64,000 nucleotides of DNA from Rubripirellula sp. (lineage in GTDB: Bacteria > Planctomycetota > Planctomycetia > Pirellulales > Pirellulaceae): contig OZ244207.1 in assembly GCA_965216875.1 (NCBI GenBank), positions 5,280,001-5,344,000 on the forward strand, written 5' to 3'. Both the position numbers and the translations under genes were made by a program. The notes beneath the pieces are model-generated. The model saw nothing but the letters and a program-made list of their open reading frames with translations, was not told where the DNA came from and did not search any database. Below, piece by piece: positions 4,316 to 64,000 of this stretch (position 1 is the stretch's first letter; each line of letters opens with the position of its first letter).

Positions 4316-4464
4316 CACCTGTGAGCCGAACGCGCTAGCGTCGGGCCTTTGCTCGTAGCTACGCTCGCCAGAGCGTGGTGATGATGGAAAGCAATCTACC
4401 GATGGAATCCACCTTCTGACGAAGGTAGCTACAAGCAAAAGCCCGAGACCTGACGGCGGCTCAC
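4316..4464. repeat. Nested REPIN-like element: an outer GTGAGCCG pair enclosing an inner GTAGCTAC pair
   Basis: Outer copies: gtgagccgaacgcgctagcgtcgggcct at 4321-4348 and a degenerate inverse at 4439-4464. Inner copies: cgtagctacgctcgccagagcgtgg at 4354-4378 and ccaccttctgacgaaggtagctac at 4409-4432. Confidence 0.75.
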
Positions 4465-5078
4465 GGACCGCCTTCAAGTTTCACCGTCTCGGCGCGGAGT
4501 CGCTCGAGGGCGCGGACCCACAGCATTCGCACGGCTCCTTCACTGCGATTCATCTTTTCAGCCACTTCGGCATGGGAAAGCTCTTGCAGATTCCGCAGCA
4601 CAATCACTTGCCGGTATTCGGGCGGCAAGCGTTGCAAGATGCTTGCCACTTGCACGTGCCGCTCTTCGGTCATCAACTGGGCACTCGGCGAAGTGGCATC
4701 GGCGGGCAACAGTCTCCCGAGTTGCATCGACGACTGCGCGAGTGATTGCTCGATCGACACTTCGCGTTTCACATCGCGTTTCTGTGTCCCCGCGTATCGG
4801 CGCGCAAGATGCGCGAGTTGGTGCGCGAGAATCTTGCGCAGCCAAGCGAGACGTTGCGGGTGATCGGTCGCCCTGCATCCTTCCCAACCACGCCAGGCCT
4901 CCATCAGCGTTTGCTGCACTGCATCCGAAGGCGAAAACTTGCCCTGAAAGCGACTGTCGATTTCCATCCGAGCCAACAGCTGCAACCACGACTCCTGCTC
5001 CAGCAACCATTCGGTTTTGGGATCCCCATCCTGGAAGGCATCGCCGACTTGATGATCCTTGGTTGAGTCGTCTGTCAT
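4461..5078 (-). CDS. ECF-type sigma-70 factor (planctomycete type), about 205 aa
   Basis: Region 2 (SPSDAVQQTLMEAW, AWLRKILAH) and region 4 (LPPEYRQVIVLRNLQELSHAEVAEKMNRSEGAVRMLWVRAL). The ATG at 5078 overlaps the kinase TGA; the track's extension to 5585 lies inside the kinase gene. Confidence 0.92.
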   Translation of the reverse strand: MTDDSTKDHQVGDAFQDGDPKTEWLLEQESWLQLLARMEIDSRFQGKFSPSDAVQQTLMEAWRGWEGCRATDHPQRLAWLRKILAHQLAHLARRYAGTQKRDVKREVSIEQSLAQSSMQLGRLLPADATSPSAQLMTEERHVQVASILQRLPPEYRQVIVLRNLQELSHAEVAEKMNRSEGAVRMLWVRALERLRAETVKLEGGP

Positions 5079-8000
5079 ACCGCCACCCTCGCTGGCCGCC
5101 GCCAACGACGAACCGTGCCGATCAAGCCCTGGATCATCAATAGGAAGAACATGCCCCAGCTCACCAGAATCGCTGCTGGGAACCCAAACCGGTAAACCCC
5201 GGGATAGGAATATCGCTCGCCTGGAATGGGATGATGGCTCGATGCGATCGATGGGCCGACAACGAACATCACGATCAGAACTCCCGTCACGATCACGGTC
5301 ACACCGAGCGTGATCGCCAATCGGCGCCAACGTTGTTGCAGCACCCACCATAGAAGCAGCAACGTGATCACCGTCGGCGGCGTTGCAAAGAACGCCAACA
5401 TCAGCCGCATCACGAGCGTCCGGACTTCGCCGTTGGGCCCCGTCTGTGACAGTCCAAAAACGAAGATCGACAACACGACCGGTGCTAGCAACAACGACCG
5501 CAGCCCGAACTGTCGATTCCAAACCAAGTAGAGAACGAACCCGAGTGGGATGATCATCAGCGTCACGCTGTAGAGCGCCATCCACAGAAACCCACGGACT
5601 TCACGCCATCGCAATTCCCCTGGCATCCCCGGCAGCGGACGCACCAGTCGCGGATCAACTTGATCGGTCGCAGCCACCGGGTCGGTGACTTCCTCGATTC
5701 CCCGGGCCGCCCTGCCAACGATCGCCCCCGTCGCGTGATCCGAAAAACGCACGATCGGGACGCCACTCGGTTTCGCTTGGCCTGCAGCCCGATGGCCGCT
5801 TAGGAGGTCGATCCCGGCGATGTTGCTCGGATCGACTTTGGGTCCGTCACAATGCCAAAGCAGACGTCCCGTTTTCAAGTCAATCGCCTCGCAGCGATTC
5901 GTCTTTTGCGTTCGCCGAAAGAGCGTTTTCGAATCGACTCCGAAGACTTGGTCAAACAAGCTCTCGGAAGTGATCGCGTACTCCCAGAGGTGCGTCGACG
6001 GATCGTTCGGGGAAACCGCGACGAGCTTATTGCCCGTTGGAAAGATCAACTCCTCACCATCGCCACCGTCAACATCGGCTGTCCATAGACGGATACGCCG
6101 CTGAGCGCGGTCGGTGAACTGAATCGGAACGGAGGCAAGTTTCTTGAGATCCGTGCCAAGAACTTCGATGCTCGAAGTGTGATCGTGATGACGGACCACA
6201 ATCGCAACCGCGTCGCTGCCCGCATGCTTCATCGCTTCAAGACGCGGTCGTGTGGTGCGATACCATGAATAGCCATAGCCGCTTGAGTTCGCATAGCCAT
6301 GTTCGATCTGGTAGTCATGCTGGGCGAGTTCTTGACCGCTGGTCGCATCGATCGCATACAACCTGAGCTGCTCTTTTCCGGTGCCAAATTGGCCACAGAC
6401 AGGTTGCACTAACACCGGCCGACCATCTTTGTCGCTCACTAGCGCGCCGTGAAGCCACGTCGCAAACGAACGTGATGGGTCGCTGGTTCGAGGCAAGCCG
6501 AAGGCCCACATTTGCTCGCCACTTCGACCATCGAGTGCACGCAACTCGAGATGCGAGCCCTGCTTCTCAGGATCGCTGGAATCACCTGGCAAGACGAGAT
6601 CAAGAACGCCGTCACGATTGGCATCAAGCCAAATCGGCTCAAGCGTGGCGGTTTGGAATCGATAGGAAGTCATTGTCGATTGGTCGAAGGCCGGCGTGAG
6701 CGGTTTGGCCCAGCGAACGCGCCCCGATCGGGACGACAGGACGAGGCACCAAAGTTGTTTGTCGGCGCTACTGATCGACTGGTCGTCGGGATAGAGGTAA
6801 TCCATCGATGCAACCATCACCACTTCATGACGATCATCACCGTCGAGATCACGCATTTCCAACCAGACAAGCTGGTCCATGTTGGAACACTGAACCGGCG
6901 AGATCCACAGCAAGCGACCTTCGCGTCCCGAGATCGCAATCAGCAAATCTTGGTTTTGACGACTGGCACGTGAAACGCCAACCACCAAGTCGTTGAAACC
7001 ATCCCCGTTGATGTCGATGGCGGCCGGTCCGTTTCCGAGCAAATGCAAGTCGTCGCCCGACTCGGTCAACAATGATGAGTCGGCCGAAGCAACGACCAAC
7101 TCGGACGAAACGTCTCGTGGCAGGTCGGTTTCCCAAAGTGGATCACCCGTTGCTCCCGAGTAGGCGTTCAGAGTTCCACCTTGCTTGGAGATCAGATCGC
7201 GCACGTCATCGCCATCAAGATCAGCGACGGCGATTGTGGAGGGTTGAAGACGACGCCAGCGTTCACCGGTGACACCCTGGTAGATCGACAGTTTTCCGCC
7301 AGCATCTCGCCCCAGGTTCTCGCCAGCCTTTTCGACGATCGCAAGTTCTTCGACCCCATCACGATCCAGGTCGGACAAGATCGTCTCGTCGGCATTGCGA
7401 ACCACATTTGCGAATCGACAAGTCCGCGGTTCGACCATCCAACACCATCGAAAATCTCCGGCGTGCCTTGGTGCCGCCGAGATCATTAGCTGTGGCACGT
7501 CCCCGCCGCCGCGCCACCAACCAATCCGATCGAGAACGTACTCGCGACCGCTACGACGATTGCGACGTAGCGAGGTCTTTCCAAACTGCACGGTTGCCCC
7601 ATCGGCTCCACTCAAACAATCGGCATAGAGTTCGTATTCGGGGCCCCAAAGGGTTGCTGCGTAAATCTCTTTCGCACCATCGCCATCGACGTCGGGGCCA
7701 ATCGCGAGGTGTTCGACACACTGGTCCATGTTCGGCAACATGCGATTCCAAATTGGTTTTCCGGTTTTGCCATCGACCAGCTCAACCCCACCCCACGGCA
7801 GCGCGCTGTAGTTGCCTTTTTCTGATGTCCCGTTGGGAACAATCACGTCACAGCATCCGTCACCGTCGATGTCGTCAAGCATCAACCAGTCGGGCGGATC
7901 GATCGTCCAGGAATCGCGTCGCTGAGGTCGTGTGGTGATTTCATGCTGCCACAACATCTTGTTTGTCGCGACCGACCACGCGGTGACCCGCGATCGCGGC

Positions 8001-10681
8001 ACCGAAACGTTTCGCGGCGGATAGCCCGCCATCGCCATCTGTTTTCCAAGATCTTCCAGAACAATTGCATCGCGTCTGCCATCGCCATCGACATCGCCCC
8101 ACTTGACGCTGCTGGACGGGTTCACGTGCAAGTCGACCTTCGTTTTGACTTGGCCATTGCTTGAATCAATGGAAACAATCTGCTGGCCAGCGAGACAAAC
8201 GATGTCACCGTCGACTCGGCGAGGGCGGTCGGGCATGTAACGGTGTTCGCCACCTCGATAGCTTCTGCTGCTGCGTTCGCGTTTCAAGACACCTCGTGAA
8301 ATCGAACTACTACCACCGCCGCCCGAACTGACCGACCCCATCCCTTTCACGAACCACCGAAATTTATACGGCACCTCGACGCCAGGAAGCATCGCAAACG
8401 AGTCTTCGCTAAAGTCGTGTCGCCAAAGCGTGTCCCCGCTCGCACCCGAAATCGCCTCGGCCCACAACGTCACCTTGGCCGGAGGCAACTTACTCAGAAA
8501 CGTTGTGTCGAGAACGGGCGCGGAATTGCCTGGTTGGCCTTGGTCCGAAATATCACCAAAGATTGCGCACCAGTCTTCGACGCCATCTCCATCGAGATCG
8601 CCCAGCGAAATCGGCTCGTAGAGTGTCGCGCTAAGCACTTGTTGCCGTGGTGGATTCGCCTTCTCGAGGTCGGCGCCTCGCGGAGCAAACCAGAGCACGC
8701 TCATGTCTTTGCCAGACAATGCCAACAACCACGCTTGATGCTGGCCAGCCAAAACAAAATCAGCAACTCCGTCGTCGTTGATATCCGTGGCTAAGGTTTG
8801 GTCGTCCGAATACTCATCGGCCTGCCCGACCACGAACGGTCGCATGTCGAATTTTCCGTAGCCCGTGTGTGACGAGCTGTAGACCGCTTGATCAGTCCAC
8901 CAGCGAAATCCGGGAGAGTCGGCCACCCACTGGGGAGCGTCCTCGGGATTTTTGAGGTCGTTTTGACTTGGAATCGCACAGACTTGCATCACCGATTCGT
9001 TTGCATTGCCATCACGGAGCAGTCGGTCAAGCTGGACTCCTGTTTTGTCAAAGCGGATTGCAAATGCAGTGTGTTGTTGCGGCCCCTCGAGTGTTCCTTT
9101 GCAACGAACGACTCGCATTGCACGATCGAACTGGATCTGTTTGCCGATCGCGATATCTTGCAGATTGACTTGAAAGTCACGCCATTGGCCCGCAATCAAA
9201 CTTGTTCTGAACGTCTGACTAAGCTTTCCGTCGCCGGAAACTTGTAGTCGAACGTCTCCGGATGGCACTTCGATCGGTTGTTGCATCGGGATCGTGAACG
9301 GACCGACGACAACGTTGTCGTCGGCGTCAACCAATTCGCCCACAAGTGGCGGTGTGTCCGTTTGGATTTGCAACTCGGCGAGTTGGGCCTGTTGGATCCC
9401 AAAGTAACTAAAGAGGCTCGCCGTGATCAGAAGCGTCGTGACCGCAACGCTACCAAGAGCCAACTTGAAGCTCTGTTTTTGTCGTTTGATCGAGCGAACC
9501 AGCAGCTCAATCGGGCTCGGACGGCGAGCGCGAATCGGACGCATTTCGGCAAAGGCTCGAAGATCATCGGCTAGCTCTTGCGCCGTTTCGTACCGATCCT
9601 CGGGATCTTTCGCCAAGCAGGTCATCACGATCGTTTCGAGATCACGAGAAATGGCGGGACGCACAGCGCTGATCGGCTTGGGCCTGTCCGACAGAATCTG
9701 TTGCAACACACCATGCGGCGTGTCCGATTCAAACACCGGTTGCCTTGTTAGCAGTTCATAAAGCGTCGCCCCGAGACTGTAGATATCGGTCCGATGATCG
9801 ATGCTGCGGAGCTTCGAGACCGACGCTTGCTCGGGGCTCATGTAACGGGGCGTTCCGAGCAACGCACCGGTCATGCTGAGGGAAACATCGTCGAGCCGTT
9901 TGGCCAACCCAAAGTCAGTCAGCCAAACTCGATGGTCATCATCAAGAATCAAGTTGGACGGTTTTACATCGCGATGAATCACGTTGCGACGGTGAGCATG
10001 TTCCAATGCTTCGGCCGCCTGCAATCCCCAATCGGCAATCGTGTCATCATCGAGTCGGCGCGACGCGCGCGTCTTGTCTTCGGAAACGTCTTTGCGCAAC
10101 ACGCGATCGAGGCTCTCGCCTTCGATGTATTGCATCGCGTAGTAGTTGACACCTTTGTCGGTGCCGACCGAAAAGATCGGAACAATATTCGTATGGTGAA
10201 GGTTGGCGACCGTTTCGGCTTCGCGCTGAAATCGGTCGACTGCGTCGGAATCGCTGCCGCCGCCGTAGCGCATGATCTTCAGCGCAACGCGCCGACCGAG
10301 AGAGACTTGGTTCGCCTCGTAAACCGCCCCCATGCCGCCACGCCCGATTTCACGGCCGATTTCAAAGTCGCCAATGCGTTTGGGTTCAGCTTGTGACTCG
10401 CGCCCATGCAACTCGGGCCCATGCAAGAACTCGATCCCGGCCAAACATGCCTCCAACCGATCGGCCAAATCGGGATGCTCGGCAAGGAGCTGCTCGCGCG
10501 AGACTGCTTTTCCGGCGGCCTGGTCAGCGACGTACTTGTCCAGAATCTCGACCAGTCGCACCGCCTCGGCGTCAGCTGCAAAATCGTCGGTCGTCGCCAG
10601 TCCATCGCTCGGCAGTCCATCGCTCGGCAGTCCATTACTGGGCTCGGGCGGGGGGTCGGTCGATTGGGGCTGCTCGGCCAT
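5075..10681 (-). CDS. Hanks-type Ser/Thr protein kinase with a TM helix, a large FG-GAP/PQQ-like beta-propeller region and a C-terminal multi-TM segment
   Basis: Kinase motifs GRGGMGAVY, VALK, HRDVKPSN, DFG and GTPRYMSPE. Many D[LIV][DN]GDG repeats and GxxLW blade motifs. Several hydrophobic helices at the C-terminus. Confidence 0.93.
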   Translation of the reverse strand: MAEQPQSTDPPPEPSNGLPSDGLPSDGLATTDDFAADAEAVRLVEILDKYVADQAAGKAVSREQLLAEHPDLADRLEACLAGIEFLHGPELHGRESQAEPKRIGDFEIGREIGRGGMGAVYEANQVSLGRRVALKIMRYGGGSDSDAVDRFQREAETVANLHHTNIVPIFSVGTDKGVNYYAMQYIEGESLDRVLRKDVSEDKTRASRRLDDDTIADWGLQAAEALEHAHRRNVIHRDVKPSNLILDDDHRVWLTDFGLAKRLDDVSLSMTGALLGTPRYMSPEQASVSKLRSIDHRTDIYSLGATLYELLTRQPVFESDTPHGVLQQILSDRPKPISAVRPAISRDLETIVMTCLAKDPEDRYETAQELADDLRAFAEMRPIRARRPSPIELLVRSIKRQKQSFKLALGSVAVTTLLITASLFSYFGIQQAQLAELQIQTDTPPLVGELVDADDNVVVGPFTIPMQQPIEVPSGDVRLQVSGDGKLSQTFRTSLIAGQWRDFQVNLQDIAIGKQIQFDRAMRVVRCKGTLEGPQQHTAFAIRFDKTGVQLDRLLRDGNANESVMQVCAIPSQNDLKNPEDAPQWVADSPGFRWWTDQAVYSSSHTGYGKFDMRPFVVGQADEYSDDQTLATDINDDGVADFVLAGQHQAWLLALSGKDMSVLWFAPRGADLEKANPPRQQVLSATLYEPISLGDLDGDGVEDWCAIFGDISDQGQPGNSAPVLDTTFLSKLPPAKVTLWAEAISGASGDTLWRHDFSEDSFAMLPGVEVPYKFRWFVKGMGSVSSGGGGSSSISRGVLKRERSSRSYRGGEHRYMPDRPRRVDGDIVCLAGQQIVSIDSSNGQVKTKVDLHVNPSSSVKWGDVDGDGRRDAIVLEDLGKQMAMAGYPPRNVSVPRSRVTAWSVATNKMLWQHEITTRPQRRDSWTIDPPDWLMLDDIDGDGCCDVIVPNGTSEKGNYSALPWGGVELVDGKTGKPIWNRMLPNMDQCVEHLAIGPDVDGDGAKEIYAATLWGPEYELYADCLSGADGATVQFGKTSLRRNRRSGREYVLDRIGWWRGGGDVPQLMISAAPRHAGDFRWCWMVEPRTCRFANVVRNADETILSDLDRDGVEELAIVEKAGENLGRDAGGKLSIYQGVTGERWRRLQPSTIAVADLDGDDVRDLISKQGGTLNAYSGATGDPLWETDLPRDVSSELVVASADSSLLTESGDDLHLLGNGPAAIDINGDGFNDLVVGVSRASRQNQDLLIAISGREGRLLWISPVQCSNMDQLVWLEMRDLDGDDRHEVVMVASMDYLYPDDQSISSADKQLWCLVLSSRSGRVRWAKPLTPAFDQSTMTSYRFQTATLEPIWLDANRDGVLDLVLPGDSSDPEKQGSHLELRALDGRSGEQMWAFGLPRTSDPSRSFATWLHGALVSDKDGRPVLVQPVCGQFGTGKEQLRLYAIDATSGQELAQHDYQIEHGYANSSGYGYSWYRTTRPRLEAMKHAGSDAVAIVVRHHDHTSSIEVLGTDLKKLASVPIQFTDRAQRRIRLWTADVDGGDGEELIFPTGNKLVAVSPNDPSTHLWEYAITSESLFDQVFGVDSKTLFRRTQKTNRCEAIDLKTGRLLWHCDGPKVDPSNIAGIDLLSGHRAAGQAKPSGVPIVRFSDHATGAIVGRAARGIEEVTDPVAATDQVDPRLVRPLPGMPGELRWREVRGFLWMALYSVTLMIIPLGFVLYLVWNRQFGLRSLLLAPVVLSIFVFGLSQTGPNGEVRTLVMRLMLAFFATPPTVITLLLLWWVLQQRWRRLAITLGVTVIVTGVLIVMFVVGPSIASSHHPIPGERYSYPGVYRFGFPAAILVSWGMFFLLMIQGLIGTVRRWRRPARVAV

Positions 10682-10817
10682 CTCGGTGTTCTTTCACTCG
10701 TCACATCGGTCGCGGCGCTGCGGCGATGCAGCGTTCCACTGTACCAAGTGCCGAGTCTGATCGGTTCGTTACTGAGATTCTCGAGAATTTCGAAGACAAT
10801 GCGTGAGACGCCGTGTT

Positions 10818-11438
10818 TTATCGACTAACCTGCACGCGGCCATCGTAGTGGATCGCCTTTTGGCGCCCGGCGACCATGTCCCAATCCATTCGGTGCGGCG
10901 GATGGAGGTAGTGACGGTACGCCACCGCCATCTGCCGAGCCACCTCGGAATAAGCCACCCCACCGAATCCAGCGCCCATCGCAGGAAAAACAACGGTGCC
11001 GATCTGATCGGGGTTGGCAACCTTGTGTTGGTAAACCGCAATCAAAGATGCCCATGTCGCGGCATAGACCTTGTCCGTCCCCGCGATCGAACCAGGGACA
11101 CGCATCGTCGGCGAGTGTGCGATGAACGGATAATCCGCAGTGCCGGTTGACTCGATAAACGAAGTGCCGATCGGTTGTTCACCAAGGTATTCGTTCAACA
11201 CTCGATGCTGCACGCGAGCCATCAAGTCTTCGCCGTGAAACCGAACAACGGCCGCGTCGATACCGGCATTCATGATGCCAAAGGAGTTGGCCGCCGTCAC
11301 AAAACAGTCGTGTGGCGGCAAGTCCTCAAAACGGCTTTCAATCACCGTCACATTCGGCAATCCCTCGAAGCGTTGACGAAACGCATCGCACATTTCAGGC
11401 TCGGGATGAATAAGCCATAGATCAATTGGCAGTGCCAT
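10818..11438 (-). CDS. Macro domain (ADP-ribose-binding or processing) protein
   Basis: Segments DCFVTAANSFGIMNAGIDAA, IAHSPTMRVP and VFPAMGAGFGG. Likely start MALPIDL at 11438. Confidence 0.8.
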   Translation of the reverse strand: MALPIDLWLIHPEPEMCDAFRQRFEGLPNVTVIESRFEDLPPHDCFVTAANSFGIMNAGIDAAVVRFHGEDLMARVQHRVLNEYLGEQPIGTSFIESTGTADYPFIAHSPTMRVPGSIAGTDKVYAATWASLIAVYQHKVANPDQIGTVVFPAMGAGFGGVAYSEVARQMAVAYRHYLHPPHRMDWDMVAGRQKAIHYDGRVQVSR

Positions 11439-11513
11439 AGGGTTTTGGAAGTCTCCGTTTACTGAACGACCATCGTAGCCGATCAACTTCGGGAAACCAA
11501 ATCCGAAAGCGTC

Positions 11514-12500
11514 CTAGGCCTGCCGTTGACTCGCTGCGACCGCATCGATGATCGCATCGAGATCTTTGGTCGGGGCGTAGCCAATCGCTTCGCGAATGCG
11601 CGTCAGGTCAGGGACGCGGCGACGAATGTCTTCGAACGATTCATCGTAGGCATCCGCGTAGCTCTGGAATTCGACCTTCGCCTCGGGATTCACTCGTTCG
11701 ATCACTCGCTCTGCCAATTCGAGAATCGACACGGGCACATCCGAGCCAATGTTGTAAACACGTCCGGCGGCCGCTGGCGTTTCAACCAACGTGACAACCG
11801 CATTGATCACATCAGCCACATGCGCGAAACAGCGAACCTGCGCACCGTCGTCGTGCACCACAAGCGACTTGCCTTGGATCGCGGCATCAACGAATCGCGG
11901 CAGCACCATGCCGTAGGCGCCGGTTTGGCGTGGGCCGACGACGTTAAAGAAGCGGCCAACCACCACGGGCAATTGTTTCTCTTTGTGAAACGCGAGCGCA
12001 AGAAACTCGTCGATCGCTTTGGAAACACCGTAGCTCCACCGCGGCTTGGTCGTTGCACCAAAGACCAAGTCGTCTTCTTCGGTCCAAGTCTCCTTCGGGT
12101 TTTTTCCATAGACTTCGCTGGTACTTGCGATAAAGCAGGGAACGAAGTCGCCCTTTTCGGCGCGCTGGCCAAGTCGATCCAAAATCAGCTGCGTTGGATA
12201 GACGTTGCGCTCGATCGTTTGAATCGGCTGCTTTGCGATCAGGGCAACGCCGACAGCGGCCGCAAGGTGATAAACACGGTCGGCGCGATCCACCACATCG
12301 GCCACCAGCTGCTCGTCCTCAACTGTCCCTTCGACATATTCCAATCGCTCGTGGGAAATAATGTCCTTGAGGTTGCCTTTTTGGCCGGTCGACAAATCAT
12401 CAACAATGATGACTCGGTGTCCGTCATCCAACAGACGCGAAGCCAGATGCGATCCGATAAAACCAGCCCCACCGGTAATCAGACAAGTTTGTGATGTCAC
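11514..12500 (-). CDS. NAD-dependent nucleotide-sugar epimerase/dehydratase (extended SDR)
   Basis: Motifs LITGGAGFIGSHL, STSEVYG, YGVSK (YxxxK) and RFFNVVGPRQ. Confidence 0.92.
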   Translation of the reverse strand: MTSQTCLITGGAGFIGSHLASRLLDDGHRVIIVDDLSTGQKGNLKDIISHERLEYVEGTVEDEQLVADVVDRADRVYHLAAAVGVALIAKQPIQTIERNVYPTQLILDRLGQRAEKGDFVPCFIASTSEVYGKNPKETWTEEDDLVFGATTKPRWSYGVSKAIDEFLALAFHKEKQLPVVVGRFFNVVGPRQTGAYGMVLPRFVDAAIQGKSLVVHDDGAQVRCFAHVADVINAVVTLVETPAAAGRVYNIGSDVPVSILELAERVIERVNPEAKVEFQSYADAYDESFEDIRRRVPDLTRIREAIGYAPTKDLDAIIDAVAASQRQA

Positions 12501-12878: not shown

Positions 12879-15800
12879 ATGTCCTCTTTTTGTCTCCTCT
12901 GGAGTGTTCGTGTGATAAGGCAGATCGCGTGCCTTGAAAGTCGCCCTAACTCAATCCCCGCCGGCCGCTGCTGGCTAGGTCTTTGGGCGTTGGTCGTTTT
13001 GTCTTTTTGCAGTACCGAAGTACGCGCACAGCAAGATCAAGGCAAATCGAGCGAAGAAGCGATGGCGGCTTATGCCGATGCCGCCAACTTCCAAACCAAC
13101 GGTGCCATCGCTCTAGCGATTGATGCATGGGATGACTATTTGGACAAATACCCAGATGACCCGATGGCATCGATGGCTGCGCATTACTTGGGCGTCTGCC
13201 ACATGCAAAAAGAGTCACCCGATCTGGTTGCTGCCGCCAACGCGTTCGCTCGCGCGCTCAAAGACCCCGACTACGATCTCCGCGAAGAGAGTCTCGCCAA
13301 CCATGGCTGGTGCCTGTACTCATCCGCTGGCGAAGGCCAACAGCGCGACGCCGGTCGCTTGCAGCAAGCGCTCGCGGTTTTCACCAAGCTCAAGCAAGAG
13401 TCGCCCGAGAGTCCCTACCTTGATCGAGCCCTCTTTTACAGCGGGGAAGCTTCGTACGGTCTTGGCAAGGCGAGCGACGCGATTGAATTCTACAACGACT
13501 TCCTAGCGCTCAAAGACGCAAAGGACTCGCCACTTCGCTGCGATGCCTTTTACGCGCGCGGTGTTGCTCAGGAAGAGTTGAAGCAGTTCGACAAAGCGGT
13601 CAACTCCTACAAGCAACTTCTTGACGTTTGCGACGATCGACCTGGGCTTGTCACGGATGTCCACATCCGAATGGGTGACCTTGCGATCCTGCAAAAAAAA
13701 TACGACGAGGCGATCACTGCATTTGGCTCCGCGATTGAATCGACCGAATCGCCCGACGATCAAGCCTACGCAATGTTCCGCCAAGCCTATGCGTTGGTCC
13801 AAAACGGAAAACCGGGCCAAGCCTCTGCGATGTACGACTCCCTAGTCAGTCAGTACCCCAAATCACCGTATGCAGCAAACGCCACGCTTGCGTCGGCGCA
13901 AAGTTCCTATCGCAGCGGCGACCTTGATCGTGCCGCAGATCGATTTCGCCAAGTCTTGAAACAAAACAACGCCGAAGCGGCAACCGAAGCAGCGCACTGG
14001 ATCGCGCGGATCGAGTTCTCTCGCGGCAAACCAACCGAAGCCGAAAAAGTAGCCAAACAACAGCTCGATTCGGGTGCAACCGGCCCCTACACGATGGCAT
14101 TGAATCTCGATCTGGCAGAAGCCTATTCGATGGATCCAGCCAAAGTCGAACAATCGATCACGCTTTTCGAAAAAGCCTATCGGCAAAGCCCACGCGACCC
14201 GCTGGCGCCTCGCGCACTCTACAACGCAGCCTTCTCGGCATTGCAAACAGGCAAGTCGGAACAGGCACTTAAACTCGCTACGGAGTTCATCCGTGCCTTT
14301 CCGAGTGACACACTTGTTCCGGACGTCCGCTTCGTTGCGGCCGAAAGCCAGCTGCTAACGGGCAACCCGTCTGACGCAGCCGACACCTACAAGCAGCTAC
14401 TCAATACCACCCAAGCATCCAACAGCCAGCGTCCGATGTGGTTGCTTCGCGCCGCAGCTGCTTGTAATTCGGCGCGAAAGTTCGACGACACGATCAAACT
14501 GATTCGTGACAACCGCCAAACACTCAAACAACCTGCGCAGCGCGCCGAAGCCCAGTTCATGCTTGGCCAGGCCTTGCTGTATTCGAACCGCGCCTCCGAA
14601 GCAGTCAATGCGTTTCAAGCGAGTCGCAATGCCGACTCCTCTTGGGCTCGATCCGACGAAGCGGCACTCATGACAGGCCAAGCTCAACTTACCTCTGGCG
14701 ATGCCGCTGCCGCGCAAACGACATGGACGTCCCTGGTCAAGCAATCGCCAACAACCGCCGCAGCCGATCAGGCACGCTATCGATTGGCTCAGCGAGCCAA
14801 CGCAAGCGGGCGGTTCGCCGACGCGGTGAGCTACTACGACCAGATCCTGCAATCACGCAAATCCGCTGGGACCGTTCCCTTTGCTCTATACGGCAAGGGT
14901 TGGTCGCTCATCCAAATCGGCAGACACCGCGACGCATTGAAGCCACTTAACGAAGTGCTTGATCAATACCAACAACACTCCGTTCGCAACGACGCAACAC
15001 TCGCTCGCGGCATCGCACTTCGAAACCTCGATCAACTTGATCAAGCGAAACTCGACCTCGAAAACTACCTCGCGATTCCACCGCAAGGTACCAATCTCGG
15101 GCATGCTCTTTACGAACTTGCTTTGATCGACCAACAACAAGATTCGCCTGGCAGCGCCGCGAAACGGCTCAAACGACTCGTCAATGAAGTCCCCGACTAT
15201 CCTGGACTTGAAAAAGTGTTGTATGAACTCGGATGGTCGCTCAAGGAGAGTGGCGATGCCGAAGGCGCGATCGAGCAGTTCGATGTTTTGATTTCTCGCT
15301 ACGGCGAGTCACCCTTGGCGTCGGAAGCTGCCTACTTCGTTGGCCAACGACAATACTCAGAAAGCCAATGGCAAGAAGCCGCCAAGAGCTTCCAGGTCGC
15401 GGCAAGCTATACCGACGATGCCACCCTTTCTGAAAAAGCGCTCTATCGGCTCGGCTGGTCGCACTTCAAGTCGGGTGACTTTGATGCGGCAAGCAATGCG
15501 TTCCAACAACAGTCGTCCAAACATCCCGATGGAAAGCTGACGCTCGATGCGTTGATGATGGTGGGCGAATGCCAATTCAAACAAGCAAACTACCAAGCCG
15601 CCCTTGCAGCGTTTGTTCCGGCGAGACAGCGTATCCGAGCGGCGGGTGACAACTCGAAAACGATTCGTGATTCGGCCGAACGCCAAGTCCGCGAACTGAT
15701 TCTGCTACACGGTGGCCAAAGCGCCGGACAACTCAAACAATGGCAAGACGCGATCGGTTGGTTTGACGAACTGAGAGAGCGTTTTCCGGCAACCGTCTAT

Positions 15801-16229
15801 TTGCCGCAAACATTCTACGAAACCGGCTTTGCCTATCAGCAAAAAGGGGACGACGAAAACGCCCTCAAGTTCTTTGGCGAAGTCGCCGCCAATTACCGCA
15901 ACGAAGTGGCGGCGCGGGCGAGATTCATGATGGGCGAAATCCATTTCGGCCAACAAGCGTTTGACAAGGCGATCCCCGAATTCCAACGGGTCATGTACGG
16001 CTTTGGTGCCGACAAGGCTCCCGATTCCATCAAGAACTGGCAAGCAAAAAGCGGCTTTGAAGCCGGTCGGTGCAGCGAATTGCTCGTCCAGCAAGCAACC
16101 AACAAACAACGCCAACAAAAAGCGATCAACATCGCGAAGGGCTTCTTTGAATACGTGATCGAAAAACACCCTAACCATGAATTGGTCGACAAGTCTCGCC
16201 AACGCCTGGAGGCTTTGACGAAGCAGTGA
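12879..16229 (+). CDS. Exported long tetratricopeptide-repeat protein (YbgF/BamD-like repeats)
   Basis: A hydrophobic segment ending ...EVRA/QQ resembles a signal peptide, followed by many TPR-like repeats (ALYRLGWS, ALFYSGEA, YPKSPYAANA). The true start may lie downstream of 12879. Confidence 0.88.
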   Translation: MSSFCLLWSVRVIRQIACLESRPNSIPAGRCWLGLWALVVLSFCSTEVRAQQDQGKSSEEAMAAYADAANFQTNGAIALAIDAWDDYLDKYPDDPMASMAAHYLGVCHMQKESPDLVAAANAFARALKDPDYDLREESLANHGWCLYSSAGEGQQRDAGRLQQALAVFTKLKQESPESPYLDRALFYSGEASYGLGKASDAIEFYNDFLALKDAKDSPLRCDAFYARGVAQEELKQFDKAVNSYKQLLDVCDDRPGLVTDVHIRMGDLAILQKKYDEAITAFGSAIESTESPDDQAYAMFRQAYALVQNGKPGQASAMYDSLVSQYPKSPYAANATLASAQSSYRSGDLDRAADRFRQVLKQNNAEAATEAAHWIARIEFSRGKPTEAEKVAKQQLDSGATGPYTMALNLDLAEAYSMDPAKVEQSITLFEKAYRQSPRDPLAPRALYNAAFSALQTGKSEQALKLATEFIRAFPSDTLVPDVRFVAAESQLLTGNPSDAADTYKQLLNTTQASNSQRPMWLLRAAAACNSARKFDDTIKLIRDNRQTLKQPAQRAEAQFMLGQALLYSNRASEAVNAFQASRNADSSWARSDEAALMTGQAQLTSGDAAAAQTTWTSLVKQSPTTAAADQARYRLAQRANASGRFADAVSYYDQILQSRKSAGTVPFALYGKGWSLIQIGRHRDALKPLNEVLDQYQQHSVRNDATLARGIALRNLDQLDQAKLDLENYLAIPPQGTNLGHALYELALIDQQQDSPGSAAKRLKRLVNEVPDYPGLEKVLYELGWSLKESGDAEGAIEQFDVLISRYGESPLASEAAYFVGQRQYSESQWQEAAKSFQVAASYTDDATLSEKALYRLGWSHFKSGDFDAASNAFQQQSSKHPDGKLTLDALMMVGECQFKQANYQAALAAFVPARQRIRAAGDNSKTIRDSAERQVRELILLHGGQSAGQLKQWQDAIGWFDELRERFPATVYLPQTFYETGFAYQQKGDDENALKFFGEVAANYRNEVAARARFMMGEIHFGQQAFDKAIPEFQRVMYGFGADKAPDSIKNWQAKSGFEAGRCSELLVQQATNKQRQQKAINIAKGFFEYVIEKHPNHELVDKSRQRLEALTKQ

Positions 16230-17224
16230 AACCGATGACGCCATACCTTCGAAAACCGTCGAAAACAACTTTTACGATGATGCGCTGTGCAATCCTGTGC
16301 ATCTGCGCCGCGTCGATTGCGATGACGTTGTGGGTCCAACCGTCCGCAGCGCAGGATGGTCCACAACCAATCAACGCAGCCGACATCCAAGACATTGTCC
16401 AACAGGATCCCGTGGACGAGGCTAGCGCGCCGCCTCCAAGCGGCATCGATCTACTGACGCTGATCGCACGCGGCGGCAGCTTCATGATCCCGATTGGACT
16501 GATGAGCTTCCTGGTCGTCGCCCTTGCCGCCGAGCGCATGATCAGCCTTCGGCTTAACAAAGTGATGCCGAAAGGCTTGGTAGATGAATTGGAAGAATGC
16601 GCCGATCCCATTGACCGCTTCAATCCAAGTCGCGCCTATCAAGCATGCCTCAATTATCCGTCGTCGGCCTCTCGAGTGATCACGTCGATGCTGATGCGAA
16701 CGGGGCAACCACTCGGCGAAATCGAACGGACCGCCAATGAATCGATTCAACGCGAAGCCGACCAACAATCCTCGGCCATTCGCTGGTTAACCCTGGCCGC
16801 GGCCGCCACGCCGCTAATGGGTTTGCTGGGAACAGTGTGGGGCATGATCGTTGCCTTCCACGAGGCAACCTCACTCACGCCCGACCGCAGTCGCAGCGAG
16901 CAGCTTAGCGAAGGGATTTACACGGCGCTCGTCACCACCTTGGCCGGACTCGTCGTCGCCATCCCCGCGGCGATCCTCGCGTTGTACCTGGAAAACCGTC
17001 TTTCCAAGTTGTTCCACCATGTCGAACAACTCGCCTTTGACATCGCACCGGGACTCGACCGATTCACGGGGCGTCGTCGATTGGATGCCGAAGGAACGAT
17101 GCACTCGATCGAAAGCGCGGCGGCGTCAAAAGCACCGCCGCCTGTCAATTCAGGTGCCCCTCAGCCTCCACCACCTCCGCCCGTCCCATCGAACAAGTCA
17201 CGCGGTGGCGCAAAGGCAGGGTAG
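16226..17224 (+). CDS. exbB: MotA/TolQ/ExbB proton-channel family protein
   Basis: Motifs ATPLMGLLGTVWGMI and GIYTALVTTLAGLVVAIPA. GTGA overlap with the upstream TPR gene. Confidence 0.9.
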   Translation: MKPMTPYLRKPSKTTFTMMRCAILCICAASIAMTLWVQPSAAQDGPQPINAADIQDIVQQDPVDEASAPPPSGIDLLTLIARGGSFMIPIGLMSFLVVALAAERMISLRLNKVMPKGLVDELEECADPIDRFNPSRAYQACLNYPSSASRVITSMLMRTGQPLGEIERTANESIQREADQQSSAIRWLTLAAAATPLMGLLGTVWGMIVAFHEATSLTPDRSRSEQLSEGIYTALVTTLAGLVVAIPAAILALYLENRLSKLFHHVEQLAFDIAPGLDRFTGRRRLDAEGTMHSIESAAASKAPPPVNSGAPQPPPPPPVPSNKSRGGAKAG

Positions 17225-17226
17225 CG

Positions 17227-17649
17227 ATGGCTGTCAAAATCAAACGCTCGAGCGTCGCAAGTACGCTCAGCTTGACACCGCTGATCGACGTCGTCTTCTT
17301 GCTGTTGATTTTCTTTCTGGTCACCAGCGAGTTCGAAGAGGAAGAACGCCGACTCGACATCGTGTTGCCCACGGCAACCAGTGCTGCGCCGATGGTCAAC
17401 AAGCCTCGCGAAATCGTTGTCGACATCGATTCAGAAGGCCAGACTTATCTGGGCGGACAACCCACCAGCCTGGGTGAACTGCAGAAGCTGCTACAAAATG
17501 CGGTAGCAAGCAATCCAACAAACCAAACGGTGGTGATTCGAGCGGATCACACCACAACGTTTCAGCCTGTCGTCAACGTCATGGATCTTTGCAACAAGAC
17601 GGGTGTCAGCGACTATTCCGTCACGACACAAGAAGGTCCCGAAGGCTAA
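17227..17649 (+). CDS. exbD: ExbD/TolR biopolymer transport protein
   Basis: LTPLIDVVFLLLIFFLV with the conserved TM Asp, plus VVIRAD and VVNVMD. Confidence 0.93.
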   Translation: MAVKIKRSSVASTLSLTPLIDVVFLLLIFFLVTSEFEEEERRLDIVLPTATSAAPMVNKPREIVVDIDSEGQTYLGGQPTSLGELQKLLQNAVASNPTNQTVVIRADHTTTFQPVVNVMDLCNKTGVSDYSVTTQEGPEG

Positions 17650-17727
17650 AAGCACACAGGCTAGACAGCACGAAGGCCCGACAACACGCAGGTTCCAAAG
17701 CGTGCAGGTAAAAGAGCCCGAAGCTTA
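17643..17727. repeat. Degenerate tandem repeat of about 16 bp
   Basis: AGG-initiated units start at 17643, 17658, 17674, 17690 and 17706, with AGC at 17722. Confidence 0.45.
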
Positions 17728-17770
17728 GTAAGTCCCAGGGTTATCAAACCGTCACGATTGATCACAAACC

Positions 17771-20554
17771 ATGCCCCGTTCATCGCCACCACCGAAAGCA
17801 ACGCGTTCGAATGAACCCGAGCGTATGTGGGCGCTTGATACGTGCTTGGTCACGCTCTCGGGCTTGGTTCTTTACCTGATCATCACGCGGCTGAGCTTCG
17901 AGGACCCGCGTTGGTTGTACAACGCGTGGACCTACGCCGTCGCTGTACCTGCGATCGCGATCCTGCTGGCAATTTCCTTGCGAGCCTTCGCGAATCGTTT
18001 CGTTCAAAAGTCGGTGCAAATCGGCTTTTTATTCAGTGTCTGTCTGCACTTGGTTTTGTTGATCTTGGCGATCAATGTCGTGATCTTCGCAAAGTACTTT
18101 CCCGACGCGTTCGCGGGTGTGAAGCCAGAGCGGTCTCCGATTCACAAAACCGTTCCCGAACACATCTTCAAGTCACCACGTGAGACCGCGACGGCGCCCG
18201 ATTGGTCCGAACCTGTCGAATCTCAAACCGCTTCGCGGGTGATGCCAGAAGAGCAAAGGCAACTCCCACCGCTCGAGCAGACGCGTCCGCGTTTGGAAAT
18301 GCCCAAGCCACAACCTCAGCGACAACGCATTATCAAGCGAACCTTGATGCGACGCGTTCGGCCCGCGCAGACAAGACCGCAGCCAGCCAATACGCCATCG
18401 ATGCGTGCACGCCAGCAAGCCAATGACAGCCAGCAGGCGCAACCGCTTGAAGCTCCCAATGCTCCCGTCGTTCCGATTCAAGCGCAGGCCCAAGCGAGAA
18501 GCGTTGAGCGCGAGTTGACTCGCAGCGACCGCCGGCAAGCTTCATCCAACGCCGCGGCAATGCGATCGATGATGGCCGATCCATCACCTTCATCGATGTC
18601 GCTTCGCGTCCCCAACACAACGCCACTTTCAGAAGCTCGCAGCCGAACAACCGAATTACCCCAGGTCGGCGAAGTCGGCTTGAGTCAACAGCGTCGCCAA
18701 CGAACACGAGCCAACCAAATGCAACCGGCCGGCGCTGCCCCATCGCCACAAACGGTTGCGGTCGCGCGCTCCGACGCCTCGGCCGAGCGGATGCTCTCGC
18801 CCGTCGAAGTCCCGATGACTCAGCGTGGTCGCACTGCGGGAGCACAATTGCTCGCAGGAGAGAATGCAAGCTCCATGCTTGAATCGACAAGTGTGGCAAC
18901 GAGCGGCGCAGACCTCGCACGGAACAACGTTGCTGCACGAGCAGGCATCCCTAGTATCAGCGCGGGTGACGCAATGCGCGCGCCAGGACGCAGCCCGCGA
19001 GCGTCAACAGGAATTGGTTTTGCGCCAGCCGGCACACCAACGCCGGGAAGCTTGGCAAGCAACGCCAGCGGTGACGCGGCCATCGGAAATCAAGGCACCG
19101 GCAACCAGGCCACGGGGCAAGCGACATCGCAAGATTCAATGGGAACCGGTGACGTCGCAATCCAAGATCGCACCGGCAGCGGCGATCTGGATGCCAGTCG
19201 AAGTGCTCGACGTGGCGGCCGTGGTGCTTCACCCAATCTTTCGGATGTGGTCGCGGCCGGTCCCGCATTCGAAATCGACGCTCCCCTTGGGATGGCCGGC
19301 ATCGGTAATCGTGTCAGTCCCACGGCCGGGTTGATGCCCGCACCTGACATTCCGGACGTCACGGCGATGGAACTGAGCGATGCGCCCCGACCTCGACGCG
19401 AAGTCGGTGGACCAGCAGTCCCCGCCGGCACCGAAATCGCCGCTGTGGAATCGTTCAATCGCCGCATGATGCGGACACAAGGCGGCGCGCTCCCGACCCC
19501 CGCTGGCAAAGTCTTGCCGCCAACCGAGCAAGCGATCGAGCGTGGACTCGCCTATCTGGCAAGCACACAAAACGACGATGGAAGCTGGTCCCTCCAAGGT
19601 CATGGTGAGGAGGTATTGCTGCAAAGTGATACCGCCGCGACCGGACTCTGTTTGCTTGCCTTCCAAGGCGCTGGCTACACGCACCGTCAACATCAGTACG
19701 CCGATACCGTTAGCAAAGGGCTGCGTTTCCTTTTAAAGAACCAGCGCACGACCGGTGACTTGTTCCGCCCCGAAAACGCGTTGAGCAATCGAAACGTCGC
19801 ACTCTACAGCCACGGGATCGCCGCCTTGGCCCTTTCCGAAGCGTATGGGATGACCCAGGATCCTGAGCTGAAACCTGCCGCACAACTCGCACTCGATTTC
19901 ATTGCTGAAACGCAACACCCACAGCGCGGCGGTTGGCGTTACACGCCGGGCATCAGCTCGGACACGAGTGTGAGTGGGTGGATGATGATGTCGCTCAAAA
20001 GTGGTGAACTCGCCGGTTTGGAAGTTCCGCCACAAACTTATGATGGCGTCAACGATTGGTTGGCGCTTGCACAAAGCCCCGATCGCCCGGACCGGTATCG
20101 GTACAACCCGTTCGCTCCCAACACACCTTCACAGCGTCACGGTCGGATCCCAACTCCTACGATGACAGCCGTTGGGATGTTGATGCGGATGTACTCGGGG
20201 TGGCGACGCGAGCGCGAAGAGATGCAGTCGGCCGCCGACTATCTGCTCGACTTCCGTCCCAGTCTCGGCGACACCGATGATCCCAAGCGGGACGGCTACT
20301 ATTGGTACTACGCTACCCAAGTGATGTTCCACATGGGCGGCGATCATTGGGAAAAGTGGAACGAAGCGCTCAATCCGCTGCTGATCGAAGGCCAAATCCG
20401 CGACGGCGCGATGGCTGGAAGCTGGGATCCCGTTCGCCCCGTTCCTGACCGCTGGAGCCCACACGCCGGACGTTTGTACGTCACGACGATGAACCTGCTC
20501 AACCTCGAAGTCTTCTATCGGCATCTGCCAATCTACGACGACACCGCCGAGTGA
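17771..20554 (+). CDS. Membrane-anchored protein with a TonB/TolA-like SxxxH helix, a long low-complexity linker and a C-terminal prenyltransferase/squalene-oxidase-repeat alpha/alpha barrel
   Basis: Three N-terminal hydrophobic segments including FLFSVCLHLVLL, about 450 aa rich in P/Q/R/A/S/G, then AIERGLAYLASTQNDDGSW, GGWRY, YYWYYATQVMF and GSWDP. Confidence 0.82.
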   Translation: MPRSSPPPKATRSNEPERMWALDTCLVTLSGLVLYLIITRLSFEDPRWLYNAWTYAVAVPAIAILLAISLRAFANRFVQKSVQIGFLFSVCLHLVLLILAINVVIFAKYFPDAFAGVKPERSPIHKTVPEHIFKSPRETATAPDWSEPVESQTASRVMPEEQRQLPPLEQTRPRLEMPKPQPQRQRIIKRTLMRRVRPAQTRPQPANTPSMRARQQANDSQQAQPLEAPNAPVVPIQAQAQARSVERELTRSDRRQASSNAAAMRSMMADPSPSSMSLRVPNTTPLSEARSRTTELPQVGEVGLSQQRRQRTRANQMQPAGAAPSPQTVAVARSDASAERMLSPVEVPMTQRGRTAGAQLLAGENASSMLESTSVATSGADLARNNVAARAGIPSISAGDAMRAPGRSPRASTGIGFAPAGTPTPGSLASNASGDAAIGNQGTGNQATGQATSQDSMGTGDVAIQDRTGSGDLDASRSARRGGRGASPNLSDVVAAGPAFEIDAPLGMAGIGNRVSPTAGLMPAPDIPDVTAMELSDAPRPRREVGGPAVPAGTEIAAVESFNRRMMRTQGGALPTPAGKVLPPTEQAIERGLAYLASTQNDDGSWSLQGHGEEVLLQSDTAATGLCLLAFQGAGYTHRQHQYADTVSKGLRFLLKNQRTTGDLFRPENALSNRNVALYSHGIAALALSEAYGMTQDPELKPAAQLALDFIAETQHPQRGGWRYTPGISSDTSVSGWMMMSLKSGELAGLEVPPQTYDGVNDWLALAQSPDRPDRYRYNPFAPNTPSQRHGRIPTPTMTAVGMLMRMYSGWRREREEMQSAADYLLDFRPSLGDTDDPKRDGYYWYYATQVMFHMGGDHWEKWNEALNPLLIEGQIRDGAMAGSWDPVRPVPDRWSPHAGRLYVTTMNLLNLEVFYRHLPIYDDTAE

Positions 20555-23864: not shown

Positions 23865-23915
23865 CACTTTCCTAGTGACGGGCACTTTCCTAGTGACGGG
23901 CACTTTCCGAGTGAC
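23865..23915. repeat. 18-bp tandem repeat (about 2.8 copies)
   Basis: cactttcctagtgacggg twice, then cactttccgagtgac. Confidence 0.9.
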
Positions 23916-24104
23916 CTTGTCGGCTGGCCGCCGCGCTCACCAGAGCGTGGATCCGAACCGCAGTTTGCAGTCACAAGCTCTGGCGGAATCTTCAAGCCCT
24001 TCCAACGAAAGCCGGGCCGGCAAACGGGAACCCGCCCCCTGTATCGGGTAGGATGTTTGTTCTCATACCCGAACGATCTCCCCACCTCGCGACCGTGACA
24101 TCCA

Positions 24105-37363: not shown

Positions 37364-37614
37364 CTGTACTCTCGGGAATGATGCAGTGGACTTCGTGGGG
37401 AATGGTTCGCCGATCAAATCGACGCTGCTATGACCCAAACGGGGGAATTAGCGGTAATGGGTTTGGGTGTCCGGGATTCCGGTAATCTGGGTCGGAATTC
37501 GAACGATCCAAAAAATGCGAGTAGTGGCCCTATCTTATCTGGTCTTCCCGCTTTATCAATCTTCTGGCGAGAATGATAACCAAACGGGATTGCTGCCGGC
37601 GGTTAGACCACCGA

Positions 37615-63189: not shown

Positions 63190-64000
63190 GACTCAGCCAA
63201 CCCCATTTCACGTGGAGGCACCGGTAGTCGTCGAAAAAAGGGAGGGACAAAGTGTTGCGAAACCAGCCCCAGACGCTCGCCCGTTGAAAGACTAATGCGC
63301 TTTTGGACCACCAAGCCCGGATCTTCGGCGATGCGTTCGAGCAAGCGACGATACGTTCGCCACATCATGCTGAACATTGGCTGACCATCAGGATGCAACG
63401 AATCCCAAACGTCCCAACCCGAATCAAACAATCTCTTGGCGCGTTCCACTTCGTCCACGATCAAGCAGCGCAAACGATCGTCTGGGCGAGGCTCAAGAAG
63501 ATCGTCCTCGCTCAAACCATGCTGCTCGTAGTGTTGGCGAGGCAAATAGATCCGTCCTCGTGCGGCATCTTCCGAAATGTCGCGCAAGATATTGGTGAGC
63601 TGAAACGCGAGCCCACAATCGACGGCCGGAGCAACGGGAAGGGGTGGCTCGAACTGCCAGATATGTAGACAAGCCAGACCGACCGCCGACGCAACCAGAT
63701 AACAATAGTGTTCGACCTGCTCGTAGGTATCAAAACGAGTCTTTTGCTGATCCGCCAACACGCCGTCGACGATTTCGAGCAGGTAGCGAGATGGGATCTC
63801 GTATTTCTGCGTCGTGTCTTTGAGTGCCGGCAAAATCTCCTTTGCCTTCTGATGCAAATCAATCGGCCCACCAGCGCGCGACTTGGAATCAGCCGCCAAC
63901 GCCCCCTCGGGGAAGACGACGCGTTGCAACGGGCCATCGCCGATCATGTTCATCGCCGTTGTCTGACGCCACCAGTCAAGCCATTGCTTTCGCAAACTTG
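63186..64000 (-). CDS. hpnD: Phytoene/squalene synthase family protein (HpnD-like), 5'-truncated by the window edge
   Basis: Motifs YCYLVASAVGL and AFQLTNILRDISEDAARGRIYLP; GTGA overlap with hpnE. Confidence 0.78.
   Translation of the reverse strand, partial: SLRKQWLDWWRQTTAMNMIGDGPLQRVVFPEGALAADSKSRAGGPIDLHQKAKEILPALKDTTQKYEIPSRYLLEIVDGVLADQQKTRFDTYEQVEHYCYLVASAVGLACLHIWQFEPPLPVAPAVDCGLAFQLTNILRDISEDAARGRIYLPRQHYEQHGLSEDDLLEPRPDDRLRCLIVDEVERAKRLFDSGWDVWDSLHPDGQPMFSMMWRTYRRLLERIAEDPGLVVQKRISLSTGERLGLVSQHFVPPFFRRLPVPPREMGLAES

Follow-up and report, generated by a model that had tools for sequence, protein, structure and literature searches.

A predicted TonB/TolA-type force transducer with a toroid head encoded behind ExbB and ExbD in Rubripirellula sp.

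A 64,000-nt stretch of Rubripirellula sp. DNA (the window; assembly GCA_965216875.1, contig OZ244207.1, positions 5,280,001 to 5,344,000) contains a four-gene operon that encodes a tetratricopeptide repeat (TPR) protein, ExbB- and ExbD-family motor subunits, and a 927-aa protein. The transmembrane (TM) motif of the 927-aa protein, the motor residues, and the gene order indicate that it is very probably a TonB/TolA-type force transducer coupled to the motor. We lean toward a fuller account in which TM3 sits on the ExbBD motor, a C-terminal toroid grips an envelope target, the TPR protein is an adaptor, and the system serves to maintain the envelope. The genome searched is 8.26 Mb in one contig and is 99% complete. 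A first-pass annotation of the window had described four co-oriented genes with tight junctions, and this layout was borne out. All four open reading frames (ORFs) are on the + strand, the TPR gene and exbB share a GTGA overlap at 16226-16229, and the exbB/exbD gap is 2 nt. A sigma-70-like promoter was not found upstream. The features of the operon, in window coordinates, are as follows.

12879..16229, + strand: TPR gene, 1116 aa, ORF call
16226..17224, + strand: exbB/tolQ-family gene, 332 aa, PF01618 MotA_ExbB E 2e-24
17227..17649, + strand: exbD/tolR-family gene, 140 aa, PF02472 ExbD E 2e-31
17771..20554, + strand: predicted force transducer gene, 927 aa, three TM helices, linker, and C-terminal toroid
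18035..18049, + strand: S-V-C-L-H motif, S89-x3-H93 in TM3, from sequence, alignment, and model
18104..19510, + strand: linker, residues 112-580, about 460 aa, no predicted fold
18149..18169, + strand: hydrophobic block, residues 127-133, 34-40 residues past the His, candidate D-box (ExbD-binding strand)
19517..20524, + strand: predicted (alpha/alpha)6 toroid, residues 583-918, QW-type repeats, AlphaFold2 predicted local distance difference test (pLDDT) 93.0 and predicted template modeling score (pTM) 0.92

The full-length model places three TM helices at residues 20-40, 52-74, and 78-109 of the 927-aa protein. The S-V-C-L-H motif had been assigned to a TM helix; the motif stands, and its helix is the third of three. 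Of the 111 aligned rows, 110 have both S89 and H93 and one is gapped, whereas several 25-residue linker windows in the same alignment fall to 0.17-0.29 majority identity. Conservation of the motif across homologs had been proposed as a check, and it holds. A single S-x3-H match means little because its genome-wide rate resembles that of control spacings: the motif occurs 63 times in 5788 hydrophobic segments (~1%) of a crude 5737-ORF gene set of this genome, and the control spacings occur 53-66 times. The motif is present in 6/6 TM-linker-barrel proteins of this genome. A distant set was drawn from the 150 best 50%-identity representatives; 18 without an alignable third helix were dropped, leaving 132. 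The motif pairs in this set are S-H (77), S-N (26), C-H (19), G-H (6), A-H (2), N-H (1), and A-Y (1), which makes the second position His or Asn in 131/132 and the first position mostly a small residue. Judged from these alignments, S-x3-H in the 927-aa protein family is in excess of chance. The loop ahead of TM3 is basic, with means of 2.58 Lys/Arg and 0.11 Asp/Glu. This basic, acid-poor loop points to the N-in/C-out orientation of TonB and suggests that the linker and barrel are periplasmic.

The motor residues of ExbB and ExbD look intact in the alignments. The ExbD transmembrane Asp, reported as intact by the first-pass annotation, is Asp21 (17287-17289) and is kept in 73/73 aligned rows. 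ExbB T203, T238, and P247 are present in 71/71 rows and S94 in 70/71. The available text of PMC12215075 on E. coli ExbB structures names a Thr ring, Pro190, and Ser34, and has Trp38 touching the TonB Ser/His. ExbB S94, T203/T238, and P247 correspond by motif to E. coli Ser34, the Thr ring, and Pro190. Residues 127-133 of the 927-aa protein may be a D-box. T127, P129, and F133 are conserved in at least 90% of the family alignment, and comparable blocks occur in distant rows. The block departs somewhat from the hydrophobic/polar pattern that defines the D-box in the available text of PMC10907165, and model confidence is low there.

The linker was expected to be a P/Q/R/A/S-rich segment of ~450 aa, and its composition agrees (52.7% P/Q/R/A/S in residues 112-580 vs 32.3% in the long ORFs of the genome). 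Linker length ranges from 340 to 1839 aa across the 132 relatives, and 20 long relatives have no Pfam domain in the linker besides barrel matches. TonB_C and TolA domain III gave no Pfam or NCBIfam match in the 927-aa protein; a Pfam TonB_2 search matched none of its controls and carries no information. A match to the E. coli TolA profile (E 3e-6) was not counted, with a bias of 41 and the helix out of register marking it as compositional. Traces of PL10 pectate lyase and GH88 in Pfam were also set aside: they score under the cut-off in the 927-aa protein, and their matches in other proteins are weak.

The gene order is conserved among relatives. The close set contains 80 loci, 71 of which match the N terminus of the 927-aa protein, and the homologs and related loci are labeled Pirellulaceae and relatives. 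The exbB-exbD pair is directly upstream in 66/66 close loci with room, and the TPR gene is upstream of exbB in 57/57. The order-wide set was defined by barrel matches at E 1e-85 in 36 further genomes from the order and 114 from elsewhere in the class. At this threshold there is one barrel match per genome in 33/36 genomes of the order and in 1/114 other genomes of the class. Across 34 order-wide loci, exbD is adjacent in 30/31 with room, exbB in 25/31, and the TPR gene in 23/29. At 1e-30, 128/151 genomes of the phylum have a barrel match, in agreement with the earlier remark that similar genes recur in planctomycetes. In 40 phylum-wide loci around the top matches, a TM S-x3-H is found on 40 of 54 barrel ORFs, compared to the ~1% of hydrophobic segments. 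Some of these loci stop at contig ends and their gene picks are crude (GC-rich shadow ORFs); the absence of exbB/exbD was rechecked by tblastn. Linkage of homologs to exbBD, another proposed check, is evident in the close and order-wide loci, but most of the S-x3-H barrels that do not belong to the long-linker subfamily lie apart from exbBD. ESM Atlas matches are solely to uncharacterised Planctomycetota/Verrucomicrobiota clusters.

The phylum-wide loci contain several other arrangements of the barrel. The S-x3-H barrel genes are frequently in tandem pairs. One fusion joins an ExbD-like domain (PF02472 E 4e-11) to a barrel (L133:7433-9694), and another joins a YfbK-type von Willebrand factor A (vWA) domain to a barrel between two S-x3-H barrel genes (L130:9691-12405). 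A SurA/parvulin-like gene is just upstream of the S-x3-H barrel gene in 8/24 scanned loci (L114, L116, L117, L123, L127, L142, L144, and L146); this neighbor scan covered 35/109 upstream ORFs with Pfam.

The barrel is shared by eleven proteins of this genome, six with the TM S-x3-H and a linker and five without the motif. A second TPR-exbB-exbD-barrel cluster (genome 2008151-2013573, L185) encodes a 710-aa TPR protein and a 601-aa barrel protein with two TM helices and S-x3-H; the TPR proteins of the two clusters are weakly similar. Three of the motif-free barrels (L186, L187, and L188) close DUF58/BatA-vWA clusters, and a MoxR gene is present in L186 and L188 among the proteins scanned. These clusters are a second recurring tie between barrel and vWA domains. 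Six more S-x3-H single-pass proteins (L189-L194) end in vWA-like domains, with Pfam hits in 4/6, and match the vWA-headed transducer class described in the available text of PMC12204202. Their positions are as follows.

Genome 1551599, 6444018, 1736427, 8115320, 1431599, 6138891: vWA-headed S-x3-H proteins, no motor genes adjoining in the listed regions

The count of predicted arms in this genome is thus at least six with a toroid head and six with a vWA-like head. A 307-aa protein (genome 1076426-1077349, L195:429-1349) has a TolA-like S-x3-H helix, a Pro-rich linker, and a C-terminal domain that matches nothing in Pfam, and is possibly a third head type. Genome totals are 9 ExbD and 8 MotA_ExbB matches. 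One cluster (L197, genome 5548168-5560562) combines exbB and three exbD with a PQQ-type propeller protein, a family-5 solute-binding protein, and two single-pass linker proteins of 305 and 310 aa without the motif His.

The C-terminal QW-repeat barrel of the first-pass annotation was confirmed by a confident (alpha/alpha)6 toroid model and by fold searches. The barrel begins at residue 583 in the full-length model. Pfam finds only sub-cut-off SQHop_cyclase_C and Pec_lyase traces in the 927-aa protein. Class II terpene cyclases have the closest folds, with 8PAJ (Z 25.8, root mean square deviation 2.9, 286 aligned) and 1GSZ (Z 25.4) tied; sugar epimerases and hydrolases follow at Z 20-23. In a 96-row barrel alignment that reaches down to 29% identity, Y679, W722, Y724, D731, W737, and Y843 are invariant (96/96), and H681, S733, E690, and R901 are kept in 95/96. 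The barrel is not decayed, because this set of Tyr, His, Asp, Ser, and Trp residues is near-invariant. The conserved residues sit at the starts of inner helices, and these helix positions suggest that they line a cavity.

The 1116-aa protein is a TPR solenoid by Pfam (TPR_6 E 6e-52, with matches to further TPR families), as the first-pass annotation had it. The export that it also proposed has a signal-peptide-like N terminus in its favor, seen by eye and not by a predictor. TIGR02795 (YbgF) scores above cut-off as the sum of 10 short stretches. The repeats are CpoB/YbgF-like, but the CpoB label was dropped, as summed repeats reflect generic TPR similarity. The co-encoded TPR protein may serve as the scaffold that was first proposed. 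When TPR residues 517-1116 and the barrel were modeled as a complex from alignments of 57 rows that share a locus, the score was 0.00, which speaks neither for nor against contact.

If the Ton and Tol systems of E. coli are a guide, ExbB and ExbD would assemble into an ExbB5-ExbD2 motor, TM3 would dock on it with His93 packing on ExbB TM1, the ExbD dimer would capture residues 127-133, and the motor would pull on the linker. The toroid may then use its conserved face to hold an outer-envelope component by a peptide- or lipid-like portion, and the TPR protein may act as adaptor. The job could be envelope upkeep, that is, positioning or remodeling between the inner membrane and the outer one. 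Two observations favor envelope upkeep over classical receptor-mediated uptake: genomes across the order have the gene in single copy, and it has no linked receptor. For the motor-driven machine with a toroid in place of TonB_C, as first proposed, motor coupling is well supported (motif, motor residues, and gene order) and an ordinary cyclase is unlikely; docking of the helix on ExbB, a barrel that does no more than bind its target, and a TPR scaffold are conjectural. A linker of 340-1839 aa would fit the enlarged planctomycete periplasm described in the available text of PMC5394234.

A number of observations weigh against this account. ExbB V98 (Val in 68/71 rows) occupies the inferred position of the E. 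coli docking Trp38; the register of the docking site (S94 and V98) was set by motif and not by structure, and by this register Val for Trp would be a real difference from E. coli. Asn replaces the motif His in 26/132 relatives. E. coli TonB may tolerate His to Asn. Two residues of the complete SHLS motif, its Leu and its second Ser, are absent: the Leu position (H+7) is A100 in 110/111 rows, and the second Ser position (H+11) is V/I104. These two residues are less conserved in Ton according to the available text of PMC12215075. The full-length model has pLDDT <50 over almost all of residues 116-579 and no confident linker fold. The linker is far longer than E. coli domain II, which when disordered transmits force poorly; in the available text of PMC10666116, disordered domain II kept colicin import and lost outer-membrane stabilization. 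Gene order also has exceptions. Order-wide, exbD is alone upstream in 5 loci (4 from one genus) and neither gene is present in 1, and in the 40 phylum-wide loci exbB is found in 0 and exbD in 3. The close and order-wide loci are kin and are not independent trials. The five barrels of this genome without an S-x3-H helix keep most pocket residues, which implies that the barrel has a motor-independent role.

The main rival holds that the toroid is a new type of enzyme, not a terpene cyclase, that works on an envelope lipid, glycan, or protein while the motor positions, moves, or switches it. This motor-tethered enzyme of uncertain chemistry is unlikely, though more likely than uptake, motility, or an ordinary cyclase. 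The near-invariant inner-helix polar residues (H681, D731, S733, E690, and R901) speak for the enzyme, as do the retention of Y679/H681/W722/Y724/D731/S733 in free, apparently exported barrels and the fact that every close solved fold is an enzyme. No known catalytic motif was matched, however, and conserved residues in helical repeats may be structural or form a binding site, their clustering in the cavity being deduced from helix positions only. The least credible reading is a class II terpene cyclase or protein prenyltransferase beta subunit of the ordinary kind, anchored in the membrane, whose place behind exbBD is incidental. The best folds are monodomain cyclases and squalene-hopene cyclase (SHC), and databases name the homologs 'prenyltransferase/squalene oxidase repeat' proteins. 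Prenyltransferase alpha subunits are TPR-like solenoids, which would suit the TPR gene. Class II cyclases require DxD or DxDD (available text of PMC12414744). The family profile at the DxD site of 6IJ1 is D-T-S-V in sequence register, and matching the helix by order gives A-L-Y-S-H, with no general acid either way. A literal D-T-D-D does occur, in a variable loop that holds residues 834-837 (20270-20281), but any DxDD is found in only 5/96 aligned barrels, and it was ruled out as the cyclase acid because it is unconserved. The earlier statement that no DxDD is visible was literally incorrect, but it holds for the cyclase position. Protein prenyltransferase beta subunits have Asp/Cys/His zinc ligands. 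The only Cys column of at least 60% in the wide alignment is 689, which is mid-helix and is Ser in the 927-aa protein, and D731-x-S733 has Ser in 95/96 rows; no Cys is conserved at the zinc-ligand position. The sub-cut-off Pfam scores, the predicted periplasmic side, and the tight synteny with exbBD also count against an ordinary cyclase, as does a separate two-domain cyclase-like protein with DxDD in this genome. The latter is a 732-aa SHC-like protein (genome 3243870-3246068) with DxDD after an aromatic repeat and a score below the TIGR01507 cut-off. With neither general acid nor zinc Cys, the ordinary active cyclase or prenyltransferase that was raised at the outset is unlikely.

The operon might instead energize uptake, replacing TonB for TonB-dependent receptors or for planctomycete macromolecule uptake, which we consider improbable. 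The genome has 9 ExbD matches, no match to TonB_C or TolB_N, and two TonB-dependent receptors over the Pfam cut-off (genome 6909997-6912195 and 837033-839552). Uptake of GFP and dextran into the planctomycete periplasm is sensitive to carbonyl cyanide m-chlorophenyl hydrazone (CCCP) by an unclear mechanism (available text of PMC5394234), and TonB was found in only four planctomycete genomes of the survey PMC3422733, as far as its available text goes; these points count for uptake. CCCP is not specific to the ExbBD motor, however, and an all-helical head is unable to add a strand to a TonB box. Pfam finds TonB_C in 112/151 genomes of the phylum, many also with barrels, which argues that toroid arms are not a general replacement for TonB. 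The window has no Pfam match to a TonB-dependent receptor, TolB, or OmpA/Pal, consistent with the first-pass annotation, and the 35 scanned upstream neighbors of phylum-wide barrels include no receptor. The genome has two OmpA-domain matches, both outside the window. Still more improbable is a part in an envelope machine that moves, like AglRQS, and that would serve surface motility, adhesion, or budding. The myxobacterial AglRQS motor works with a TolA-like partner and TPR proteins, and the parts list here is the same: TPR, motor, and S-x3-H protein. A possible gliding role is proposed for vWA transducers in the available text of PMC12204202. The neighbors tested include no conserved gene for an adhesin or an outer-membrane track, in scans that were not aimed at Agl-Glt components.

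An NAD-dependent sugar epimerase/dehydratase gene lies next to the operon.

11514..12500, - strand: NAD-dependent sugar epimerase/dehydratase gene, PF01370, divergent from the operon

It is a frequent neighbor of the operon, present in 39/52 close loci with room. Other genes of the window include a sigma-70 region 4 protein, an 1868-aa Ser/Thr kinase with FG-GAP repeats, and a macro-domain gene (4461-11486, - strand). Two Planctomycete-extracellular/dockerin proteins (33227-40299) adjoin the gene for a 5379-aa protein (40766-56905, - strand) with PPC, beta-helix, GEVED, and dockerin-like matches. At a distance of 41 kb from the operon are squalene/phytoene synthase-like and flavin amine-oxidase-like genes (61762-63995, - strand). 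Three tandem 18-bp copies, two of them identical, are intergenic at 23865-23918, ahead of a C45 acyltransferase gene.

The operon was compared with known systems. The available text of PMC12204202 (Williams-Jones et al. 2025) predicts vWA-headed, motor-driven transducers in the Planctomycetes-Verrucomicrobia-Chlamydiae group and other bacteria; the operons in that group have the order TPR-tolQ-tolR-tolR and an SHLS-helix protein that has a linker and a vWA head, and leaves their function open. Both proposals are based on prediction. The two plans share the SHLS-type TM helix, a disordered linker, a head unrelated to TonB_C, and a gene placed behind TPR, tolQ-like, and tolR-like genes. The present operon differs in its toroid head, single exbD in place of a heterologous tolR pair, three TM helices, and linker of about 460 (340-1839) aa compared to about 100 aa. 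The first-pass annotation knew of no characterised system with this architecture. The plan itself is already published with vWA heads, and the toroid form was not found described. Prenyl, squalene, toroid, and cyclase are unmentioned in the main text of PMC12204202, and prenyl and squalene are absent from one supplement file. The literature search, which covered open papers, found no description of a toroid-headed form. The operon shares with TonB-ExbB-ExbD and TolA-TolQ-TolR the S-x3-H helix, the motor Asp and Thr ring, the ExbB TM1 Ser and TM3 Pro, and a periplasm-spanning linker (available text of PMC12215075). It differs in that its head is neither TonB_C nor TolA-III, no receptor, tolB, or pal gene is linked to it, Val stands at the inferred site of the docking Trp, TM helices number two more, and the linker is unstructured. 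Monodomain class II cyclases (MstE 6SBB, 8PAJ, and 6IJ1) and the SHC beta domain (available text of PMC12414744) have the same (alpha/alpha)6 toroid and QW-type repeats at Z 22-26 and 16-19% identity, whereas the head has no DxD/DxDD acid, is fused to a motor-docking helix, and is predicted to be periplasmic. The TPR protein resembles Tol-Pal CpoB/YbgF in TPR repeats above the TIGR02795 cut-off, but it has 1116 aa compared to about 260, is encoded before exbB, and has no tolB/pal. The operon is thus predicted to follow the vWA-transducer plan with a different head, and appears TonB/TolA-like while falling outside the Ton, Tol-Pal, vWA, and cyclase families. The toroid form is real and conserved, and apparently unpublished.

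To our knowledge, every TonB/TolA arm characterised so far has the same terminal fold, which contributes an additional beta-strand to the target. If the present reading is true, the toroid would be the second predicted alternative head after vWA, derived from an enzyme fold and spread over the phylum, and ExbBD motors would drive modular effectors. A wider view is speculative and rather unlikely: a phylum-wide family of interchangeable motor arms, with a cyclase-derived ring that has a conserved His/Asp/Ser site of its own and does chemistry driven by proton motive force or pulls on the outer envelope, and with this operon, single-copy in the order and with linkers of 340 to over 1800 residues, as the machine spanning the enlarged periplasm, possibly an apparatus for CCCP-sensitive macromolecule uptake or membrane invagination. 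The finding puts right the label that databases commonly give, prenyltransferase/squalene oxidase repeat protein. It would also provide named genes for two planctomycete questions, energy transfer across the enlarged periplasm and macromolecule uptake.

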